DNA from: Patescibacteria group bacterium
GTDB lineage: Bacteria; Patescibacteriota; Patescibacteriia; Patescibacteriales; GWC2-42-12
NCBI GenBank assembly: GCA_041662965.1
Contig: JBAZRI010000001.1
Location: 227,680-291,679, forward strand
Direction: 5' to 3'
DNA: 64,000 nucleotides
In this document: piece by piece, positions 1,291 to 61,416 of the stretch
How positions within the stretch are numbered: position 1 is the first letter of the stretch
How the letters are laid out: each line of letters starts with the position of its first letter
Made by a program: the position numbers and the translations under genes
The notes under the pieces: generated by a model
What the model saw: the letters and a program-made list of their open reading frames with translations, nothing else
Databases searched by the model: none
Told to the model about the DNA's origin: nothing

Positions 1291-1429
1291 TGTCATTGCG
1301 AGCGACTGCAAGGAGCGCGGCAATCTAACGAACTATTTTATTAAATTATAGATTTGTTTTTAACACAAAGGTTTATTATATTAAATTGTCCGTGAGATTG
1401 CTTCGTCGCTATCGCTCCTCGCAATGACA
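1291..1429. repeat. TGTCAT-hairpin palindromic element, ORF-less copy with a ~60-nt AT-rich core
   Basis: Ends are TGTCATTGCGAGCGACTGCAAGGAGCGCGGCAATCT ... GAGATTGCTTCGTCGCTATCGCTCCTCGCAATGACA. It lies in the convergent rplU/recR spacer. Confidence 0.85.
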
Positions 1430-4963: not shown

Positions 4964-6301
4964 ATGAAAAATATTAAAATAAAAATTTATACCTTAGGCT
5001 GTAAAGTTAATCAGTATGATTCGGGTAAACTAGCCGGCGAGCTGGTTCGGGCCGGCTTTATAACCGCGGACAAAAACGCCGATATAGCCGTAATCAATAG
5101 CTGCGCCGTGACTAAAACTGCCATAATTAAAAGCGGCCGCATGGTTAAATTGGCTAAAAAAGAAAACCCCAAAGCTAAAATCGTTTTAGCCGGCTGCTGG
5201 CCGAAAACCTATGGAATAAAGAATATTGCCGCTGATTTTATTATTGCCAAAGGCGAGGTCGGCGAGGCTATTAAAAAAATTGCGAATCGCTTCTCTCTAT
5301 TTAAGGATAAGATCTTTACGCCGGCTATCGCCGAGCTCGCGCTAACCGGCCGGACAAGGTATTTTATAAAAATTCAGGACGGCTGCGAGCAGTATTGCAG
5401 TTATTGCGTTATCCCTTACGCGCGCGGCAAATTAATTAGCAGGGGAGAGAAAGAAATTATTCGCGAAATTGAACGGGCGGTAAAAGCCGGATATCGGGAG
5501 ATCGTGCTGTCCGGAATCCATTTAGGGTTGTATGGAAAAACGAGCCAATTGTCATTGCGAGCGACCGGAGGGAGCGAAGCAATCTCACGTACTCGGAGCT
5601 TAACCGGAGATTGCCGCGTCGCTGGCGCTCCTCGCAATGACAAGCTGACGGCATTATTAAAAAAATTAGTTAAAATAAAAGATCTCGGCCGGATCAGGTT
5701 AAGTTCAATTGAAATCACCGAAGTATCGAGCGAGCTGATAAATTTAATGGCCGGGTCAAATAAAATTTGTAAGCATCTGCATATACCATTGCAGTCCGGC
5801 TCGGATAAAATTTTAAAATTAATGAATCGGCCATATGATGTAAAATATTTTTCTGGCCGGATAAAAAAAATTAGGCAAATTATGCCGGATATTGCCATTA
5901 CTACCGACGTGATTACCGGCTTCCCGGGCGAGACCGAGAAAGATTTTAAAGACACGGAAAAATTTATTAAGCGGATAAAATTCAGCCGTCTGCATGTGTT
6001 TCCATATTCGGCTCACGAAAAAACGCCGGCCGCTAAATTCCCCGGCCAAGTTAAAGAAAAAAATAAAGCGCAACGGGCGGAAAAATTAAGGCGGCTTGGC
6101 CTTAAGCTGGCTGAAGATTATAAAAAGAAATTCAAGGGCAGGGAGCTGGAGATTACCGTGGAGCGGATAAAGCAAGATGAAATTATCGGTAAAACCGAGT
6201 TTTATTTTGATATTTTATTTAAAAAGCGACAGCTTATCGGCGGAGAAGCCAGCCAAAGTAAAAAATTAATAGGCACGATTGTTAAGGTAAAAAACAATTA
6301 A
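4964..6301 (+). CDS. mtaB: MiaB/MtaB-family radical-SAM tRNA methylthiotransferase carrying an in-frame repeat insertion
   Basis: MTTase N-domain (IYTLGCKVNQYDS), radical-SAM cluster (GCEQYCSYCVIPYARG) and a TRAM-like C-terminus. Residues LSLRATGGSEAISRTRSLTGDCRVAGAPRNDK are encoded by a palindromic repeat. Confidence 0.85.
   Translation: MKNIKIKIYTLGCKVNQYDSGKLAGELVRAGFITADKNADIAVINSCAVTKTAIIKSGRMVKLAKKENPKAKIVLAGCWPKTYGIKNIAADFIIAKGEVGEAIKKIANRFSLFKDKIFTPAIAELALTGRTRYFIKIQDGCEQYCSYCVIPYARGKLISRGEKEIIREIERAVKAGYREIVLSGIHLGLYGKTSQLSLRATGGSEAISRTRSLTGDCRVAGAPRNDKLTALLKKLVKIKDLGRIRLSSIEITEVSSELINLMAGSNKICKHLHIPLQSGSDKILKLMNRPYDVKYFSGRIKKIRQIMPDIAITTDVITGFPGETEKDFKDTEKFIKRIKFSRLHVFPYSAHEKTPAAKFPGQVKEKNKAQRAEKLRRLGLKLAEDYKKKFKGRELEITVERIKQDEIIGKTEFYFDILFKKRQLIGGEASQSKKLIGTIVKVKNN
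5550..5642. repeat. TGTCAT-hairpin palindromic element inserted in frame inside the mtaB-like CDS
   Basis: 93 bp (31 codons), TGTCATTGCGAGCGACCGGAGGGAGCGAAGCAATCTC ... GAGATTGCCGCGTCGCTGGCGCTCCTCGCAATGACA. Near-identical in layout to 58563-58654. Confidence 0.85.
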
Positions 6302-34116: not shown

Positions 34117-34247
34117 TGTCATTGCGAGGAGACTTGTAATCAAGTCGACGAAGCAATCTCTGGTTAAGTTCAGAGTACGTGAGATTGTGAAGTTTATCCC
34201 GAGCGATAGCAAGGGACCTGCATTCCTTTCAGTCGCTCGCAATGACA
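34117..34247. repeat. TGTCAT-hairpin palindromic element, ORF-less copy in a divergent promoter region
   Basis: TGTCATTGCGAGGAGACTTGTAATCAAGTCGACGAAGCAATCTC ... GAGATTGTGAAG ... CAGTCGCTCGCAATGACA. Confidence 0.8.
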
Positions 34248-40511: not shown

Positions 40512-40593
40512 TGTCATTGCGGGCTTGACCCGCAATCCAGAAACTTGTTAATTGCGATTAAACATGGATTCCGGCTCGTAGGCCGGAATGACA
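40512..40593. repeat. TGTCAT-hairpin palindromic element (variant stems) in the clpB 5' leader
   Basis: TGTCATTGCGGGCTTGACCCGCAATCC ... GGATTCCGGCTCGTAGGCCGGAATGACA. Confidence 0.75.
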
Positions 40594-42832: not shown

Positions 42833-43603
42833 ATGTTAAAATATACGCCGTCAAAAAACGCGTTAATCATCGCTAAGCAATATTTAAAGCAAGAATTCAG
42901 GAAAATTTTTGCCGATATTAAAGATGATAAATTTTATAAAAGAATTGATAAATCAATTGATAATTTTAACGCCAGGGAAGGGGAGGCGTCGTTTTGGAAT
43001 TTATTAGCCGCGATTTCCGAAGGCTGGAAGCTAAAGCAGGTTTTCGCCGTTATGTCGGATGATAAATATCAATGGAAGCTGAAAAATATCCCGTTGGAAA
43101 AAATTTATTTAACCGGCATGTCGCCGATAATTGATAAGTATGTTATAAAAAAATTCAACCGCAATCCGGCGGCTTTTGCCAAAGCCTGGAAGATAAACAA
43201 GGCTATGCGGGAGGAAATTATTAAAACCGGATTTTGCGCCCATAAAGAAAGGGATTATTTCCCGATTTTAGTTTATAAAACAGGGGATAGTTACCGAGTT
43301 TTTGACGGCATGAGGCGCGTTTTACTAGCCTTAACTAAAAATCAAAAAAATATTAAAGCTTGGGCAGGCTATAAAGTTAACGCTAAAGGCCGGCCGCTCA
43401 TTAGCGCCAACCGTTGCTATTTTTTGTCAAACTTATATAATCAAGCCAAGAGCAAAGATAAAACTCTGGAAAAATCAATTATTAGAATTGGCAAAGAAAT
43501 CAATAAAAATTATCGTAACGGCCGCGAAGTGCTTTTAAAAAGAATTATCGGCTGGTCGCATGACCAAAAAATAAAAAGTATTTTCGCGGAAATGATAAAA
43601 TAA
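42833..43603 (+). CDS. Hypothetical protein with a ParB/Srx-like nuclease-fold motif in the C-terminal half
   Basis: YFPILVYKTGDSYRVFDGMRRVLLAL resembles the ParB-like DGxHR core (weak). The N-terminal half is unrecognised. Confidence 0.35.
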   Translation: MLKYTPSKNALIIAKQYLKQEFRKIFADIKDDKFYKRIDKSIDNFNAREGEASFWNLLAAISEGWKLKQVFAVMSDDKYQWKLKNIPLEKIYLTGMSPIIDKYVIKKFNRNPAAFAKAWKINKAMREEIIKTGFCAHKERDYFPILVYKTGDSYRVFDGMRRVLLALTKNQKNIKAWAGYKVNAKGRPLISANRCYFLSNLYNQAKSKDKTLEKSIIRIGKEINKNYRNGREVLLKRIIGWSHDQKIKSIFAEMIK

Positions 43604-43620
43604 AAAGTTCATCTTATCTT

Positions 43621-44089
43621 TGTCATTTCGACCGAAGGGAGAAATCTATAATACAAGGAAAGCGCTTTATTATGCGAAAAGAATACCAATTTTTTGTTTA
43701 TATTTTAAGCAATTACGAAAGAACAACTTTATATGTAGGTTTTACTAATAATATAATAAGGAGAATGATTGAACATAAAAACGGCCTAGGCTCTAAGTTT
43801 ACTAAATTATACAAGTTAACAGATTTACTTTATTACGAACAACACCAATATGTTAACGATGCCATTTCCAGAGAAAAAGAAATAAAAAAATGGCGTCGCG
43901 AAAAAAAGATTAATTTGATAAAATCAAAAAATAAAATGATGAATGATTTAAGCGATAAGTTATTTTCAGAATATGATATTTCCGAAAAAGAAATTAAAGA
44001 TTATGTAGGTAGTTTAAAAAATAATTGATATATTAGTTTAAGTATTAACCTATTATAGATCTCTCCTCCCTGTGGTCGTCGAGATGACA
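43621..44089 (+). mobile_element. GIY-YIG gene bracketed by inverted TGTCAT-hairpin termini (candidate autonomous element, copy 2)
   Basis: Left end TGTCATTTCGACCGAAGGGAGAAATCTAT (43621-43649). Right end ATAGATCTCTCCTCCCTGTGGTCGTCGAGATGACA (44055-44089). Confidence 0.6.
43672..44028 (+). CDS. GIY-YIG nuclease family protein (118 aa)
   Basis: FFVYILSN..TLYVGFTNNIIRRMIEHKNG ... AISREKEIKKWRREKKINLIKS. Paralog of 53371-53667. Confidence 0.8.
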   Translation: MRKEYQFFVYILSNYERTTLYVGFTNNIIRRMIEHKNGLGSKFTKLYKLTDLLYYEQHQYVNDAISREKEIKKWRREKKINLIKSKNKMMNDLSDKLFSEYDISEKEIKDYVGSLKNN

Positions 44090-44121
44090 AAAAGGTCAGG
44101 CTAGAGATGATAATAATATTT

Positions 44122-45603
44122 ATGAGCAATATCAGAGTTCGTTTCGCTCCATCGCCGACCGGTTTCCTGCATATCGGCAGCTTAAGGCCGGTTTTGTTTA
44201 ATTATCTGATAGCGAAAACTTTAAACGGTGAATTGATTTTAAGGATTGAGGACACGGACCAAAAAAGGGAAGTTCAAGGCGCGGTTAAAGGCTTAATTGA
44301 TATTTTAGACTGGGTGGGCATAAAATTTGACGAAGGGCCGCATGTTGGCGGCGGATTCGGGCCATATACCCAATCGCAAAGGCTGGAAATTTATAAAGAG
44401 CATATTGAAGCGCTTTTAAAAAAGGGCGAGGCTTATTATTGTTTTTGCACTTCTGAAAGATTAACCGAGATGCGCGAGCGCCAGCAGGCGGAAAAAAAAC
44501 CGCCGCGCTATGACCGCGCCTGCCGCGAGCTCGCCAAAGAAGAAGTTGAGAAAAAAATTAAAGCCGGAGAAAAATTCGTTATCAGGCAAAAAATGCCTGT
44601 GGGCGGAGAAATTATTGTCCATGATGAACTGCGCGGCGATATAAAATTCGCGGCCCGCGATCTGGAAGACCAAGTTTTAATAAAATCAGACGGCATGCCG
44701 ACTTATCAATTCGCTAGTGTAGTTGATGATCATCTTATGGCCATCAGCCATGTCTTAAGAGGCGATGAATGGCTTTCCAGTTTCCCCAAAAATATTTTAT
44801 TATATAACGCCTTCGGCTGGCCAGCGCCGAAATTTATTCACCTAACCTTAACTTTAAATAAAGAAGGCGGTAAATTAAGCAAGCGCCAGGGCGACGTAGC
44901 GGTTGAGGATTACCGCTCTAAAGGCTATCTGCCCGAAGCTCTATTGAATTTTTGCGTCTTGCAGGGCTGGCATCCTTCGGCGTCGGCTAAAGCGCCAAAA
45001 GAAAAAACCGATGAAATTTTAAATTTGGATGAAATGATTGAATATTTTGATTACAAAGATATGGGGATCAGCCCGGCGGTTTTTGACATAGAAAAATTAG
45101 ACTATTTCAACGGTTATTATATCAGGCGGATGTCATTGGAAAAATTAACTAAATTATGCCTGCCGTTTATGGGCGAAAATTTGAAATTAACTCGCGATAC
45201 AAGAAAACAAGCCAATGATTTTATGGAAAAAGTTATCGGGCTGGAGCAGGAAAGGCTTAAGAAATTATCCGAGATAGGGGAGTTGACAAAGTTCTTTTTT
45301 TTGGATAATCTTGAATATCCGGAAGAAATGCTGATCTGGAAAAATTTAACTCTTAAGCAGGCGAAAGCGAACCTTAAAGAGCTGGCCGCTTTGCTTGAAA
45401 AAATTCCCGAAGCCGACTGGTTGAAAGAAACGATTGAAAAAACTCTGCTTGATTACATTAAAGACAAAGGCGCTAAAAACGGCGATTATCTCTGGCCTTT
45501 GCGCGTAGCGCTTTCCGGCCAAAAATTCAGCCCGCCGCCTTTCGCCATCGCCGCGATTCTAGGCAAAAAAGAAAGTTTAGATAAAATTAATAAAAATAAA
45601 TAA
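44122..45603 (+). CDS. gltX: Glutamyl-tRNA synthetase
   Basis: RVRFAPSPTGFLHIGSLR (HIGH-type motif), KLSKR motif. Start moved to MSNIRV. Confidence 0.95.
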   Translation: MSNIRVRFAPSPTGFLHIGSLRPVLFNYLIAKTLNGELILRIEDTDQKREVQGAVKGLIDILDWVGIKFDEGPHVGGGFGPYTQSQRLEIYKEHIEALLKKGEAYYCFCTSERLTEMRERQQAEKKPPRYDRACRELAKEEVEKKIKAGEKFVIRQKMPVGGEIIVHDELRGDIKFAARDLEDQVLIKSDGMPTYQFASVVDDHLMAISHVLRGDEWLSSFPKNILLYNAFGWPAPKFIHLTLTLNKEGGKLSKRQGDVAVEDYRSKGYLPEALLNFCVLQGWHPSASAKAPKEKTDEILNLDEMIEYFDYKDMGISPAVFDIEKLDYFNGYYIRRMSLEKLTKLCLPFMGENLKLTRDTRKQANDFMEKVIGLEQERLKKLSEIGELTKFFFLDNLEYPEEMLIWKNLTLKQAKANLKELAALLEKIPEADWLKETIEKTLLDYIKDKGAKNGDYLWPLRVALSGQKFSPPPFAIAAILGKKESLDKINKNK

Positions 45604-45632
45604 AAAAATCCCGAAAGGGGAAGGGGGATGAC

Positions 45633-45893
45633 ATGAATTACGAGGAGTATTTGTTCTTTTTATTTTCAATTTTTTTTGGCATTTACTTGATGGGCAGAGG
45701 ATTTTCTTCTGAAACGCTCTCTCTAACGTGTGCAATATTTGGATTATTTATTTTCTTTTTTGCCTTCATGAATTTATTATTTTTAGGGCCAGGAAGCAAA
45801 GTGGCTACCATGCCGGCGGATATATTTTTCGCGGTGGTAGCTGGAATGTTAATAGCGTGGGCCTTTGGAAAGACAATCGAAAGGAGGACATGA
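45633..45893 (+). CDS. Small membrane protein (86 aa, 3 TM)
   Basis: G-rich SD GGGGAAGGGGGA upstream. Hydrophobic segments. The stop overlaps the next start (ATGA). Confidence 0.45.
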   Translation: MNYEEYLFFLFSIFFGIYLMGRGFSSETLSLTCAIFGLFIFFFAFMNLLFLGPGSKVATMPADIFFAVVAGMLIAWAFGKTIERRT

Positions 45894-46186
45894 TGAATTT
45901 ATGGGAAGCTTTTATTTTTATAATGTTAGTTTTTGTATTTATTCTGATAACCGAAAGGAAAAATGTTAATAACCCGGGGCGGATAGGAGAATATGCGATT
46001 TTTATGTTTTTCGTTGTAATATTGACATCAGGAATAATAATGTTATTTATTTCTTTCTTTTCTTTTTATTGCCACTGGCCATCTTTTTATTGCCGCTGGC
46101 CATTCGTAGTGGTACTTGATAGTATGGTAATATCATATTCTGGCTTGCTGTTGGGCTATACTGTAAAGCAATTGTTTTTTAAATAA
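45890..46186 (+). CDS. Small membrane protein (98 aa) with an FYCHWPSFYCRWP duplication
   Basis: SD AGGAGG 3 nt upstream of the ATG at 45890. The tracked ORF start (45728) overlaps the previous gene out of frame and is rejected. Confidence 0.45.
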   Translation: MMNLWEAFIFIMLVFVFILITERKNVNNPGRIGEYAIFMFFVVILTSGIIMLFISFFSFYCHWPSFYCRWPFVVVLDSMVISYSGLLLGYTVKQLFFK

Positions 46187-46264
46187 GATAATCTATGTAG
46201 TTAAGGGGCTTGGATAAAATCCGGCTCCTTTTTTTATTGTTTAAAAAATGTTATAATTAAATTA

Positions 46265-46351
46265 TTCACCCTGTTAGAAGTCTTAAATAAACAAGATATC
46301 TGGCAGGGCAAATTATAATTGCAGTTTCTATGGGAACTTCTAACAGGGTAA
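46265..46351 (+). promoter_or_regulatory. Start-codon-enclosing inverted repeat, copy 2 (TTCACCCTGTTAGAAGT ... ACTTCTAACAGGGTAA)
   Basis: A 14-nt perfect complement flanks the ATG at 46330. Base changes relative to copy 1 are compensated in both arms. Confidence 0.55.
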
Positions 46352-47579: not shown

Positions 47580-48023
47580 ATGGATTTAATAGAACATTAT
47601 AAAAAAGTCCAAACAGCTTGCGACTGCGCTTTAAAAATAATTGGCATTACCAAGCTTAAATTCAGGCCCATGCGCCGCCAAGACGACCACGTTAATACCA
47701 AGCGTGGTTTTGTTATCGGCCGGACGAATTTAAAAACCGGCCTGATTACGATTGATATTTTTACGCCGAAGTTCAGAAAGCCAAAAAAAATTTCTTCAAT
47801 TTTAAGGACGCTAGCCCATGAAGCCGCGCATCATCAAAAACCGCCTTACCGCTCGCGGTTCAGGGGGCGGATAATAACCAGAATTCATTACCCGATATTT
47901 TATCGGCAGGTAACGAGAAATATTAAGAAGTTGAAAAAAGACAAAACGCTGGGGGAGTATTTTTCCTTGAATAGGGGATATAGGCATTTATTTTTAAAGC
48001 GGTATGCGCGTATTACTTTATAG
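47580..48023 (+). CDS. Putative zinc metallopeptidase-like protein (HExxH; SprT/DUF45-like)
   Basis: The LAHEAAHH motif in a small basic protein; weak assignment. Confidence 0.35.
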   Translation: MDLIEHYKKVQTACDCALKIIGITKLKFRPMRRQDDHVNTKRGFVIGRTNLKTGLITIDIFTPKFRKPKKISSILRTLAHEAAHHQKPPYRSRFRGRIITRIHYPIFYRQVTRNIKKLKKDKTLGEYFSLNRGYRHLFLKRYARITL

Positions 48024-48062
48024 TCATTTCAATAAATCTAAATTTCTACGGGCTTAACCTAG

Positions 48063-48107
48063 ATTCCCGCCCGCCTAGCGGACTGGTAAACCTGCGCGGG
48101 AATGACA
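48063..48107. repeat. Solo TGTCAT-hairpin unit just 3' of the metallopeptidase-like gene
   Basis: ATTCCCGC-ccgcctagcggactggtaaacct-GCGGGAATGACA. A degenerate partner aGTCATTTC lies at 48022. Confidence 0.6.
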
Positions 48108-53296: not shown

Positions 53297-53740
53297 TGTC
53301 ATCCCGAGTGAGCGCATCTGCCAATCGGCAGATGAGCGACGAGGGATCTCGTTAAATGCAATAATGTAAATTATAAAAAATCTATTATTAAGTCTTTAAA
53401 TATTAAGTTGTTACTTTTTATTAAGTTTATTTTCTTTTCTCTGCGCCAGCCTTTTAATTCTTTTTCTCTGGAGATGGCGTAGCTAATATCATTAAATATT
53501 TCATAATAAACTAATTTATTGATATTGTACTTCGCGGTAAAACTTTTTGGAAATTTTTTATTTTTATGTTCATAGCAGCGGTTCAATAGATTATTGGTAA
53601 CTCCGATATAAAATCGTTTATTATTGATGTTAGTTAAAATATAAATATAGTAAGTATATTCTTTCATCTTTAAATTATATTATCATTTTATCGCGCTTTG
53701 CCGAGATCCCTCTGCCGCTGAAGCGGCATTCGGGATGACA
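53297..53740 (-). mobile_element. GIY-YIG gene bracketed by inverted TGTCAT-hairpin termini (candidate autonomous element, copy 1)
   Basis: TGTCATCCCGAGTGAGCGCATCTGCCAATCGGCAGATGAGCGACGAGGGATCTCG (53297-53351) and CGAGATCCCTCTGCCGCTGAAGCGGCATTCGGGATGACA (53702-53740). Confidence 0.65.
53371..53667 (-). CDS. GIY-YIG nuclease family protein (98 aa)
   Basis: YYIYILTN..RFYIGVTNNLLNRCYEHKN ... AISREKELKGWRREKKINLIKS. Confidence 0.8.
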   Translation of the reverse strand: MKEYTYYIYILTNINNKRFYIGVTNNLLNRCYEHKNKKFPKSFTAKYNINKLVYYEIFNDISYAISREKELKGWRREKKINLIKSNNLIFKDLIIDFL

Positions 53741-53743
53741 TTA

Positions 53744-55201
53744 TTATTTCGGCCGCATCAGCGGGAAAATTTGGCATTCTCTCATGGATCTGTCCATTAA
53801 AAAAGCAAAGACGCGCTCCGACATGCCAAAGCCGCAAGCCGGCGGCATGCCGTATTCTAAAGCTTCCACAAATTCAGCATCAAACATCTGGGCTTCTTCG
53901 TCCCCTGCTTCCCTTAATTTAGCCTGCTCTTTAAATCTTTCAACCTGGTCTAAAGGATCATTAAGCTCGCTATAGCCGTTGCCTAGTTCCGAGCCGGCGA
54001 TAATCACCTGAAATCTCTGGCTTAATTCCGGATGTTTCTCATCGCGCTTAGCCAAAGGCGAGACTTCAATCGGCACGCCGGTTAAAAAGCCCGGGCCGGT
54101 GATTTGCTTACGGCAATATTTCCATAAATTATCAATGGCGCGAGTTTTATTAAAGCCTTTTTTATCATATTCCACGCCCAGTTCTTTTAGTTTTTTTTCA
54201 ATCTGTTTTATATCCGTAGCTAAAATATCAACGCCCGTATATTTTTTTACGGTTTCGCGGTAATCATAGCGCTCCCAGGTTTTCCCCAAATCAACTGCAA
54301 AATTTTTAATTTTAAATTTAAGCGCGCCGAAAGTTTCCTCGGCCGCGTATTTAAACAGCTCTTCAACCAGTTTCATGCCGGCTTCATAATCGGCGTAGGC
54401 CCAATAAAATTCCATATGCGTGTAATCCTGCAGATGCTCGGCGTCCATGCCTTCATTGCGAAAAACTCGCCCAATCTCAAAAGTTTTTTCAAAACCCGCG
54501 ATCATCAGCCGTTTTTGCCATAATTCGCCGGCGCAAATACGCAGATAAACATTCATATCCAAAGCGTTATGATGAGTTAAAAAAGGCCTGGCGTCGGCGC
54601 CGCCGGCGGTATTCTCCAGGACCGGAGTTTCAACTTCCAAAAAATTTTTCTTAATTAAAAAATCCCGGATAGACTGCCAAAATTTCGCGCGTTTTATAAA
54701 TATGTCTTTTACCTCGCTGTTAAATAAAATATCCAAATAGCGTTTTCTCAATAGCTCTTCTTCGTCCGATAAACCGTGCCATTTTTCCGGCAGGGGCCGG
54801 ACGGCTTTGGCTAAGAGCCGCCAATCTTTAACCATAACGCTTTTTTCACCGTTATGGGTTAAAAAGGCCGTGCCGGAGATTTGCGCGAAATCGCCGATGT
54901 CAACGTATTTTGAAAATATTTTATAGCTCGAGTCGCCAATTTCTTTTTTAGAAAAAGCCAGCTGGATTTTACCGCTACCGTCTTCCAGATGGGCGAAAGT
55001 AAGATTGCCGTGGGCGCGCAGGCTTCTTAGCCGGCCGGCTAATTTCAATTCAACTTCGCCTGATTGCAATTTTTCAAAATCAGCCAGAACGTTATTCACA
55101 AAGATATTCTTTTCCGCTTTGGCCGGGTAAGGGTTGACGCCTAATTTTTTTAATTCCGCTAATTTTTTAAGCCGGTCCTCGCGCTCGCTTGTTTTTATCA
55201 T
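53744..55201 (-). CDS. lysS: Lysyl-tRNA synthetase, class II
   Basis: OB-fold N-domain. FLEVETPVL, FRNEGMD, and GGFGMSERVFAFL-type motif 3 (ACGFGMSERV). Confidence 0.95.
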   Translation of the reverse strand: MIKTSEREDRLKKLAELKKLGVNPYPAKAEKNIFVNNVLADFEKLQSGEVELKLAGRLRSLRAHGNLTFAHLEDGSGKIQLAFSKKEIGDSSYKIFSKYVDIGDFAQISGTAFLTHNGEKSVMVKDWRLLAKAVRPLPEKWHGLSDEEELLRKRYLDILFNSEVKDIFIKRAKFWQSIRDFLIKKNFLEVETPVLENTAGGADARPFLTHHNALDMNVYLRICAGELWQKRLMIAGFEKTFEIGRVFRNEGMDAEHLQDYTHMEFYWAYADYEAGMKLVEELFKYAAEETFGALKFKIKNFAVDLGKTWERYDYRETVKKYTGVDILATDIKQIEKKLKELGVEYDKKGFNKTRAIDNLWKYCRKQITGPGFLTGVPIEVSPLAKRDEKHPELSQRFQVIIAGSELGNGYSELNDPLDQVERFKEQAKLREAGDEEAQMFDAEFVEALEYGMPPACGFGMSERVFAFLMDRSMRECQIFPLMRPK

Positions 55202-58562: not shown

Positions 58563-58654
58563 TGTCATTGCGAGCGACCGCAGGGAGCGCGGCAATCTCA
58601 CATACGTGGGATTTAACCAGAGATTGCTTCGTCGCTGCGCTTCTCGCAATGACA
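58563..58654. repeat. TGTCAT-hairpin palindromic element, ORF-less copy between GT4 and GT2
   Basis: TGTCATTGCGAGCGACCGCAGGGAGCGCGGCAATCTCACATACGTGGGATTTAACCAGAGATTGCTTCGTCGCTGCGCTTCTCGCAATGACA. Confidence 0.85.
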
Positions 58655-59803
58655 GTGAGAGAATGTTATTGCTTTATATATTTTTTTAATCTGTTTTTCC
58701 CAATTAAATTCTTTGATCGCTCGCTCTCTCCCCTGCTCGCCTAATTTTTTTCGCAGTCCGGGATCCCGGGCTAATTTAATGATAGCCGAAGCGATTTGCT
58801 CCGTATCTTCGGGATCAACTAAGAGGCCGTTTAAGCCGGCTATTACGGCGTCGCCGACTCCGCCGCTTTTGCCGGCTATTACCGGCTTGCCGGCCAGATT
58901 AGCTTCCAGATAAACTAGGCCAAAGCCCTCAAAATCGCCGTTAATATTTCGGCTAGGCATAATAAAGATGTCGCTGGCATTATACCAATTATCGCGCTCC
59001 TTGTCCGTAGCTTGATTTATTATTATAACTTGTTTTTCCAATCCCAAATTTGAAATTTGAAATTTTAAATTTTTTAATTCGGCTCCGCCGCCTAAAATAA
59101 TATAAATTAAATTCGGCGCTTGTCTTAGCGCTTCCGGCAGAGCTTCTATGACTTTATCAAAACCTTTGCGTTTTACCAGCCTGCCGACCGATAATAAAAT
59201 TATTTTATCGGTTAAATTATATTGTTTTTTTAAAGCAGAAATTTTTTCCGGCGCCGCCGGCCGCGCCGGCTCAATCGCCGGGTTAACGACGGCTATTTTA
59301 TCCGCGCTTAACGGGAAAAATTGTTTGGTTAAATTCGCCGTGTAGCCGTTTAAGCAAATTATTTTATGGGTATTAGATAAAATTTTTTTAGCCAGCCATT
59401 TTTTTCTGGGTTTCTTCAAGGCGTAAGTTAAATCCATGCCGTGTAAAAATACCGAATATTTTATTTTAAAAAATTTGGCGCAAATCAACGCGGCCGCGCC
59501 TAAGGGCAAAATTTGGCCGACTAAAATATGCTCGATTTTTTCTTGTTTTATTTCCCGCCGCAAAGCGAAATAAGCCGGCAGCCATTTTAACAGCGGCAGT
59601 TTATTATTAATCAAGCGCCCATCCTTGTTATCAAGCACGGAAATTTCGTCCGGCTTGGGCTTGCCCTCCGACTTGTCCGCCAAAGCTTTAGCGTCGGTGG
59701 AAGCTTTAGCGAAGGAGGGCCAGTATTTTACCAGATTACCGTAATAATTGGCCACGCCGCCATGAAACGGCGGATATTCTAATGTAAATAATAGAGTTTT
59801 CAT
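58613..59803 (-). CDS. Glycosyltransferase family 4 whose last ~14 codons and stop lie inside a palindromic repeat; also carries an internal repeat-encoded insert
   Basis: GFGLVYLEANLAGKPVIAGKSGGVGDAV motif. The C-terminus ...FSHCHCEKRSDEAISG is repeat-encoded. The FAKASTDAKALADKSEGKPKP insert lies near the N-terminus. Confidence 0.8.
   Translation of the reverse strand: MKTLLFTLEYPPFHGGVANYYGNLVKYWPSFAKASTDAKALADKSEGKPKPDEISVLDNKDGRLINNKLPLLKWLPAYFALRREIKQEKIEHILVGQILPLGAAALICAKFFKIKYSVFLHGMDLTYALKKPRKKWLAKKILSNTHKIICLNGYTANLTKQFFPLSADKIAVVNPAIEPARPAAPEKISALKKQYNLTDKIILLSVGRLVKRKGFDKVIEALPEALRQAPNLIYIILGGGAELKNLKFQISNLGLEKQVIIINQATDKERDNWYNASDIFIMPSRNINGDFEGFGLVYLEANLAGKPVIAGKSGGVGDAVIAGLNGLLVDPEDTEQIASAIIKLARDPGLRKKLGEQGRERAIKEFNWEKQIKKIYKAITFSHCHCEKRSDEAISG
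59663..59720. repeat. GCCCTCC...GGAGGGC palindromic repeat inside the GT4 CDS
   Basis: gccctccgacttgtccgccaaagctttagcgtcggtggaagctttagcgaaggagggc. A related sequence (gcccgcctcgctaaagctatggcggacaagccggc) lies at 25675-25712. Confidence 0.65.
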
Positions 59804-61291: not shown

Positions 61292-61392
61292 AAAATATGT
61301 TAATATTATAGCTTATTTTTAATAAAAATAAAACCCCGTTTTTTAAACAAGGTTTTATTGTATATTTGATATTTGTATATTATAAATTCTGG

Positions 61393-61416
61393 ATTCCCGC
61401 CTACGCGGGAATGACA
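61393..61416. repeat. Solo TGTCAT-hairpin unit immediately 3' of rpsI
   Basis: ATTCCCGC-ctac-GCGGGAATGACA, 5 nt after the rpsI stop. Confidence 0.6.

Follow-up and report, generated by a model that had tools for sequence, protein, structure and literature searches.

A 469-nucleotide (nt) segment just upstream of gltX in a Patescibacteria metagenome-assembled genome, in which an open reading frame (ORF) for a small GIY-YIG protein lies between two inverted hairpin units, raises the question of whether such a unit is a mobile element that inserted itself at this position or a resident locus that keeps a nuclease together with its own repeats. The segment, element 2 (43621–44089), was analysed within a window, the whole stretch of 64,000 nt under study, together with a second gene-carrying unit in the same window, element 1 (53297–53740). 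For comparison, 180 GIY-YIG genes with their flanks (locus numbers prefixed by L) were analysed from among the matches listed in genome and metagenome collections, covering Patescibacteria, Bacteroidota, Chloroflexota, Acidobacteriota, Verrucomicrobiota, Ignavibacteria, Proteobacteria, and Planctomycetota. Sequence comparison suggested that element 2 is very probably an Ssn locus, that is, a small GIY-YIG nuclease gene of the single-stranded DNA (ssDNA) nuclease family with a cognate hairpin, a variant of the Ssn-related motif (SRM) repeats of this family, on each side.

The founding member of the family, SsnA of Neisseria meningitidis, is a 94-amino-acid (aa) single-domain GIY-YIG protein (cd10448) and a site-specific ssDNA nuclease (Chenal et al., 2025, Nat Commun 16:2388, PMC11893778). 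SsnA binds the NTS repeat, CGTCATTCCCGCGMAVGCGGGAATCYRG, as ssDNA only and in one orientation only, and makes its cut upstream of this repeat, a few nucleotides away, with neither cleavage of double-stranded DNA nor binding of RNA. Binding depends critically on the C that directly follows the NTS palindrome, and cleavage on the three bases that precede it, while changing the palindrome with the hairpin kept abolishes SsnA activity. Homologs of three further species each cleave their own motif and show partial cross-specificity, an SRM lies near 71% of the homolog genes and on both sides of 42%, and the SRM-rich genera include Rickettsia. The NTS–ssnA–NTS layout was called insertion sequence (IS)-like and was compared with IS200/IS605 and repetitive extragenic palindrome (REP)-associated transposases, and co-evolution of nuclease and hairpin was noted. 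Moreover, SsnA lowers transformation of Neisseria by NTS-bearing DNA (PMC11893778). An earlier phylogenomic paper on GIY-YIG proteins, from 2006, placed such proteins among the stand-alone Slx1-like ones and makes no mention of flanking repeats. Keyword searches of the GIY-YIG literature returned nothing on an association with repeats, and Chenal et al. (2025) was matched on the hairpin sequence.

The left end of element 2 is TGTCATTTCGACCGAAGGGAGAAATCTAT from 43621, and the right end is ATAGATCTCTCCTCCCTGTGGTCGTCGAGATGACA, finishing at 44089. The inverted-repeat arms 43619–43632/44078–44091 are 93% complementary and the arms 43638–43653/44051–44066 are 94% complementary. The original prediction had placed hairpin ends around a 118-aa GIY-YIG ORF, which was confirmed, and had read ATTTC/GAAAT in all four arms as a coordinated change relative to element 1, which was not: this stem is present at the left end only, while the right end reads ATCTC/GAGAT, so that each stem is compensated internally and the two ends are unlike one another. 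TGTCAT and the inner ATCT, said to have been kept, are present in both elements. In addition, the ORF of element 2 and that at 53371–53667, described as roughly half identical, share 51% of residues (47/92), and the quoted sequence blocks are common to both.

Membership in the Ssn family was evaluated against three thresholds: a GIY-YIG protein with a single domain and no more than 150 aa, a blastp E-value below 1e-10 over at least 75% of SsnA, and an SRM within 500 bp on either side of the gene. An N. gonorrhoeae ORF of 94 aa, with Y6, Y17, and E64 and the exact NTS consensus on its flanks, was taken as the SsnA ortholog and used in place of N. meningitidis CAX49033.1, with pairwise blastp E-values. 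This sequence was read from NZ_CP119140.1 and NZ_CP119142.1 (L178), 2.17-Mb chromosomes that are filed as plasmids in PLSDB and are almost unannotated. The element-2 protein showed 40% identity to this reference over 88 residues (SsnA 2–89, E = 5e-23) and the element-1 protein 41% over 91 residues (SsnA 5–94, E = 1e-26), and a family profile aligned to it with an hhalign probability of 99.7%. Residues Y10, Y21, and E68 of the element-2 protein are invariant in 16 family members and align with the SsnA residues Y6, Y17, and E64 that were mutated in PMC11893778, with the same spacing of the catalytic Tyr/Tyr/Glu. At 118 and 98 aa, both window proteins fall within the size limit and resemble the Neisseria system in being single-domain GIY-YIG proteins of about 94–120 aa. 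Pfam detected GIY-YIG in both and otherwise a borderline T5orf172 match overlapping the same stretch (E about 1e-3). Among solved structures, the nearest are the UPF0213 proteins 1zg2 and 1ywl. Furthermore, the hairpin determinants defined by mutagenesis, GTC 5' and C 3' of the palindrome, are present at both ends of element 2.

Several observations weigh against the assignment to an Ssn locus. The published SRM search pattern, HGTCWYN(0-2)YYVSBRHN(0-5)WNVSBRGN(0-2)RNCYNB, which is the authors' operational pattern and not a definition of the repeat, finds no match beside either window gene and, within 500 nt, picks up a match at just 3 of the 165 genes of this branch. It fails because these hairpins lack a continuous 8-bp stem and instead have a 5-bp stem, then a GA/GA pair, and then a variable distal stem-loop. 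The two ends of element 2 differ in stem, while changing the palindrome abolishes SsnA activity (PMC11893778), so that a single enzyme may not act at both. The DNA folds of the element-2 hairpins are weak (−2.6 and −2.1 kcal/mol; z = −0.3 and +0.1 versus shuffles), and the stems are argued from comparison and covariation because these energies are no better than those of shuffles. In the 64-kb window there is no ORF-less copy with the stem type of either gene-carrying element, nor is there an ATTGC-type nuclease gene in the window for its ATTGC doublets; none of the best 120 relatives of the ATTGC-type protein of L001 lies on the window's own 294-kb contig.

The stems across related loci represent compensated variation on a fixed scaffold. 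A generic scan (GTC, 5 nt, loop, complement, and C) was too noisy, with 35 matches in the window versus 21 in shuffles, and was replaced by anchor-based tests and a GTCA[TC] requirement. At 165 GIY-YIG loci, every GTCA followed by four bases was taken as an anchor, chosen blind to its 3' side, and was scored as paired if a perfect 5-nt complement followed by C lay within 70 nt, with the complement of a different anchor as the control. Pairing was found for 366 of 2229 anchors, versus 46 in the mismatched-stem control, and the paired stem types were ATTTC (143), ATCCC (71), ATTCC (43), ATTGC (14), ATCCT (13), ATCTC (10), and ACCCC (4). The consensus of 301 distinct units beside dereplicated genes, selected for a GTCA anchor, five perfect stem base pairs, and a trailing C, was T-GTC-AT(Y)(Y)C-GA...GA-G(R)(R)AT-C-T with a loop of 7–75 nt. 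Both GA dinucleotides, which the search left free, are conserved in 92–97% of these units; T precedes GTC in 85% and follows the trailing C in 77%, neither base being imposed by the search.

These units are concentrated at the nuclease genes. Their density was 0.43–0.58 per locus within 50 nt of the gene versus about 0.01–0.03 beyond 500 nt, with the plus orientation favoured upstream of the gene and the minus orientation favoured downstream. A unit was present within 500 nt of 155 of the 165 genes and on both sides of 127, and a simple repeat–gene–inverted-repeat bracket, leniently defined, was found at 115 of 180 genes, other loci having complete doublets (two inverted units side by side) on one or both sides. 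This distribution bears on the view that the hairpins are generic regulatory or terminator-like palindromes, or RNA structures, unrelated to a nuclease that adjoins them by coincidence. Similar hairpins are indeed present at roughly nine further sites of the window that are not next to GIY-YIG genes, and several of these sites directly follow a stop codon. However, units are 20- to 40-fold enriched beside the gene family relative to positions more than 500 nt away in the same loci, one unit is always upstream of the gene, the stem type follows the protein clade, and SsnA does not bind RNA (PMC11893778), which leaves this view with a close to negligible probability. An intrinsic terminator was rejected for the element-2 units, neither of which is terminator-like or contains a T-run, and the generic terminators that the original prediction had raised as the alternative for the termini do not match what was found, given also the density beside the gene. 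In an Rfam search of the window, only tRNAs passed the gathering thresholds, and a structured RNA or ribozyme at element 2 was rejected because 43560–44150 gave no match with E-values of up to 1 allowed. Truncated copies of the outermost 10–20 nt of a unit (e.g. TGTCATTGCGA and repeated CGAAATGACA) often lie in tandem just outside a complete unit, as at L001 3651–3663 and in the flanks of L008, L013, L014, L025, and L054, and the duplicated piece in L025 extends a few bases into the flank.

The stem type follows the nuclease clade rather than the host genome. A left ATTTC and a right ATCTC are present in every close relative of element 2, namely L090 (92% aa identity), L001, L005/L091/L092, L008 (60%), and L094 (58%), including copies in other contexts (L008, after serS, and L094), and the same asymmetry is kept in ORF-less doublets of the clade of the 118-aa protein; outside this clade the ATTTC/ATCTC pair is rare. 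Other clades have fixed asymmetric pairs of their own, such as ATTCC/ATCCC in L077 and ATTTC/ATATC in L017. Orthologs of element 1 retain ATCCC: in L088 and L089 this element lies, with its ATCCC stems, between a class II Asp/Asn-type tRNA synthetase gene and coaD. A third clade, found in L001 upstream of WecG and in L170–L177 between pheS and pheT, retains ATTGC and has the inner junction GCAATCTC(C/T)GGTTAA...AACC(G/A)GAGATTGC. Among 82 dereplicated bracketed genes, pairs of the same stem type had a mean identity of 62.5% versus 54.6% for pairs of different type, a difference reached by 0 of 5000 label permutations, in a test that leaves shared ancestry in place. Pairing is argued more cleanly by the contrast inside a single genome, where the differing stems of the paralogs each match those of their own orthologs elsewhere. 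The proposal that nuclease and termini form cognate pairs that diverge together is supported by the clade-specific stems, by the permutation test, and by the finding of Chenal et al. (2025) that homologs cut their own hairpin; the alignment of the GIY-YIG ORFs with their flanks, suggested at the same time, gave the correlation of protein with stem type described here.

Element 2 is an old, vertically inherited resident under strong purifying selection rather than a recent insertion. The gene and both hairpins are syntenic in L001 (83% aa identity), in the order WecG, a 256-aa gene, GIY-YIG, gltX, and M23 peptidase, and L005 (77%) has element 2 at the same position without a separate 256-aa gene. 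In the GIY-YIG gene, the proportion of synonymous differences (pS) was 0.51 between the window and L001 and 0.70 between the window and L005, and the ratio of nonsynonymous to synonymous change (dN/dS) was 0.11 and 0.06, respectively. The corresponding dN/dS values for gltX were 0.14 and 0.13, so that the nuclease gene is at least equally constrained. The left unit, 27 nt long, is unchanged in L001 and has one different loop base in L005, and the right unit has an invariant stem and flanks in both, with a variable loop. The shared position, with synonymous sites at or near saturation and this low dN/dS, speaks against the original description of the element as inserted just upstream of gltX in the sense of a mobile event.

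The strongest competing explanation is that element 2 is an autonomous mobile element, with the GIY-YIG protein acting as a transposase on hairpin terminal inverted repeats, that inserted itself upstream of gltX. The repeat–gene–inverted-repeat layout is IS-like, and the same analogy was raised in PMC11893778. The ends and inner junctions of gene-carrying copies recur in ORF-less doublets, as would be the case for deletion derivatives (L005 and the ATTGC type), and doublets show presence/absence differences and nested insertions. At deeper divergence, moreover, the same-clade gene with its ends is found in other contexts (L008 after serS, L094, and L037), which means that the unit moved or was transferred on long timescales. 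Against this, elements 1 and 2 are both single-copy syntenic orthologs with the saturation and constraint described above, and neither gene-carrying element has a second copy in the window. No target-site duplication was visible at any end read (both elements, the doublets, and L005), and no direct repeat flanks any of these ends as in a classical terminal inverted repeat transposon or a miniature inverted-repeat transposable element. The only Pfam family matched was GIY-YIG, with no match to the HUH/Y1 transposases of IS200/IS605 and REP-associated elements. We know of no demonstration that a gene-carrying unit is autonomously mobile, nor, to our knowledge, is a covalent intermediate or strand transfer known for a GIY-YIG hydrolase. 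The characterised homologs are hydrolytic ssDNA nucleases for which no strand transfer was shown (PMC11893778). Taken together, a self-inserting element is considered unlikely.

A related explanation, that the GIY-YIG gene is a homing endonuclease gene that entered the middle of an unrelated palindromic repeat and spreads between copies of the repeat by cleavage and gap repair, is still less credible and is regarded as very improbable. The GIY-YIG fold is common in homing endonucleases, the gene occupies the spacer between two units, and 'empty' doublets exist; the proteins also weakly resemble the group I intron endonuclease model TIGR01453. The scores of 16.3 and 21.3 bits, however, are far from the cut-off of 56, and with only about 25 aa beyond the nuclease domain the protein is without the DNA-binding domain of an I-TevI-type enzyme. 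Long-term purifying selection at a fixed locus is unlike the usual cycle of invasion and decay, many loci have the gene beside complete doublets and not within one, and the homolog SsnA leaves double-stranded DNA uncut (PMC11893778).

With element 2 itself best read as a resident Ssn locus, presence/absence differences were found only in the ORF-less doublets. L005 lacks the doublet 40512–40593 in its orthologous intergenic region near ClpB, where the flanks have diverged, and L089 has an ATTGC doublet at the 3' end of coaD that is absent in L088 and in the window, a comparison too diverged to define the boundaries. In mtaB (ORF 4964–6301, a radical-SAM methylthiotransferase gene), a 93-nt ATTGC doublet is inserted in frame and free of stop codons right after GIHLGLYGK; the orthologs P0132, P0133, P0211, and P0214 have no insert after this motif, other orthologs carry the same type of insert, and in P0122, P0127, and P0151 a second unit type is nested in or beside the insert. 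Three of the four ATTGC doublets of the window have inner junctions in common with gene-carrying ATTGC elements, on the left for 34117–34247 and on the right for 5550–5642 and 58563–58654, and in L005 an ORF-less ATTTC/ATCTC doublet lies directly upstream of the gene-carrying element. The shared ATTGC junctions and this adjoining doublet suggest that ORF-less doublets arise by deletion of the gene.

A bolder possibility, which we put forward tentatively and consider rather doubtful, is that the hairpin doublets are non-autonomous but active mobile elements, which the cognate Ssn nuclease propagates or maintains through ssDNA, as a GIY-YIG counterpart of the REPIN/RAYT system. Both systems have a single-copy, vertically inherited nuclease gene that is under purifying selection and has its own hairpin repeats on its flanks, together with dispersed doublets of two inverted hairpins, a short conserved motif 5' of the hairpin, and a repeat type matched to the gene. 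In contrast, RAYT is a domesticated IS200/IS605-type HUH/Y1 tyrosine transposase, whereas the window enzyme is a GIY-YIG hydrolase, and the two belong to unrelated sequence families. If the doublets were mobilised in this way, the system would have clade-specific, left/right-asymmetric ends, would be capable of colonising essential genes such as mtaB in frame, and would be spread over Patescibacteria, Bacteroidota, Chloroflexota, Acidobacteriota, and other phyla in a hairpin form missed by the published pattern.

By analogy with SsnA, each hairpin would fold on one strand only when the DNA is single-stranded, as during replication, repair, or DNA uptake. The nuclease would bind the hairpin, reading both the stem sequence and the structure, and would cut a few nucleotides 5' of GTC. 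Owing to the inverted arrangement of the two units, both predicted cuts lie outside element 2, just beyond the left end on the top strand and just beyond the right end on the bottom strand. The most likely role of such a nuclease would be the control of recombination or ssDNA processing at repeat-marked sites, as in Neisseria transformation; a possible role is the spreading or maintenance of repeat doublets, as for REPIN/RAYT.

Beyond the protein itself, the window loci share with the Neisseria system the hairpins marked by GTC and C, the layout of repeat, gene, and inverted repeat, the dispersed copies, and the covariation of nuclease and hairpin. They differ from that system in the stem architecture described above and its failure to fit the published pattern, in the unlike left and right stems (ATTTC versus ATCTC) kept throughout the element-2 clade, and in the C-terminal extension of about 25 aa on the protein. 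In contrast to the NTS of N. meningitidis, only 2% of which lie inside genes, a doublet of the window is in frame inside mtaB. The host group also differs: Patescibacteria are unmentioned in the main text of PMC11893778. Like the neisserial dRS3 repeats and intergenic mosaic elements, the window units are short and bounded by inverted palindromes of the ATTCCC-N8-GGGAAT type, with a near-canonical copy at 61389–61416, whereas most of them have other stems and longer loops, and dRS3 is described without flanking GTC/C orientation marks. Rickettsia palindromic elements are short palindromic repeats that lie in frame within protein genes and are translated through. The in-frame doublet in mtaB resembles them in this respect, which hints at a possible link.

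The coordinates of all features are given in Table 1. In the window, TGTCATYYCGA with at most one mismatch occurs 13 times versus 2.0 expected, nearly always as inverted pairs. The published SRM pattern has its sole window match at 61389–61416 (shuffle mean 0.08); 26 of the 28 positions of this unit fit the Neisseria NTS consensus, and no cognate nuclease gene of its type is present in the window. In element 1, the distal stem-loop is GCATCTGCCAATCGGCAGATG in the window (53298–53348) and CCCCGCATCTGCGGGG in L088 (3320–3362); the surrounding DNA is about 93% identical, and the proximal stem and flanks are the same despite this replacement. The minus-strand ORF 58613–59803 stops within the doublet 58563–58654, so that its final codons are derived from the repeat, and the listed start of the next ORF is also inside.

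Table 1. Hairpin units, nuclease genes, and the adjoining synthetase gene in the 64,000-nt window
Feature	Position	Strand	Remarks
Left hairpin unit of element 2 (SRM variant)	43621–43647	+	T-GTC-ATTTC-GA-CCGAAGG-GA-GAAAT-C-T
ssnA-like gene of element 2, 118 aa, GIY-YIG only, C-terminal extension of ~25 aa	43672–44028	+	Pfam GIY-YIG, E = 8.7e-14
Right hairpin unit of element 2, minus-strand reading	44057–44089	−	T-GTC-ATCTC-GA-CGACCACAGGGAG-GA-GAGAT-C-T
gltX, class I Glu/Gln tRNA synthetase	44107–45603		Next gene after element 2
Hairpin unit of element 1 downstream of its gene, stem ATCCC/GGGAT, long distal stem-loop	53297–53349	+	Orthologous units in L088 and L089
Second ssnA-like gene (element 1), 98 aa	53371–53667	−	Pfam GIY-YIG, E = 1.1e-16; syntenic in L088 and L089
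Hairpin unit of element 1 upstream of its gene, stem ATCCC/GGGAT	53704–53740	−	DNA fold −10.2 kcal/mol, z = −2.6
ORF-less doublet, ATTGC stems	1291–1429		
ORF-less ATTGC doublet, 93 nt, in frame in mtaB	5550–5642		
ORF-less ATTGC doublet, right unit degenerate	34117–34247		
ORF-less doublet, stems ATTGCGGG and ATTCCGGC	40512–40593		Absent at the orthologous L005 site
Degenerate doublet, right unit with ATTCCCGC stem	48023–48107		
ORF-less ATTGC doublet at a gene junction	58563–58654		
Solo canonical SRM, TGTCATTCCCGCGTAGGCGGGAATCCAG	61389–61416	−	DNA fold −8.9 kcal/mol, z = −3.7

The spacer between gltX and the M23 peptidase gene is about 500 nt longer in the window (45603–46330) than in L001 (5660–5881) and contains two overlapping small ORFs (45633–45893 and 45728–46186), with no hairpin unit seen there. 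The ssn-like genes of Patescibacteria adjoin aminoacyl-tRNA synthetase genes in four of the seven independent contexts seen, the neighbours being gltX (43672–45603), a class II Asp/Asn-type gene (53371–55201), serS (L008, 93–1866), and the pair pheS and pheT, between which the gene lies in L170–L177.

Since the Ssn system was published in 2025, element 2 opens no new category; what is new here is a hairpin variant outside the published pattern, clade-specific asymmetric ends, and a Patescibacteria host. The partnership of Ssn nuclease and hairpin extends into Patescibacteria and several other phyla, and current SRM counts are probably large underestimates because the published pattern recovers so few of the genes of this branch. 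Each of the stem types ATCCC, ATTGC, and asymmetric ATTTC/ATCTC comes with a matching nuclease, and these natural specificity pairs would be useful for a toolbox of sequence-specific ssDNA cutters. Moreover, the contrast between a conserved nuclease gene and doublets that turn over, sometimes in frame within genes, bears on the mobility of the repeats and on the role of the nuclease outside Neisseria.

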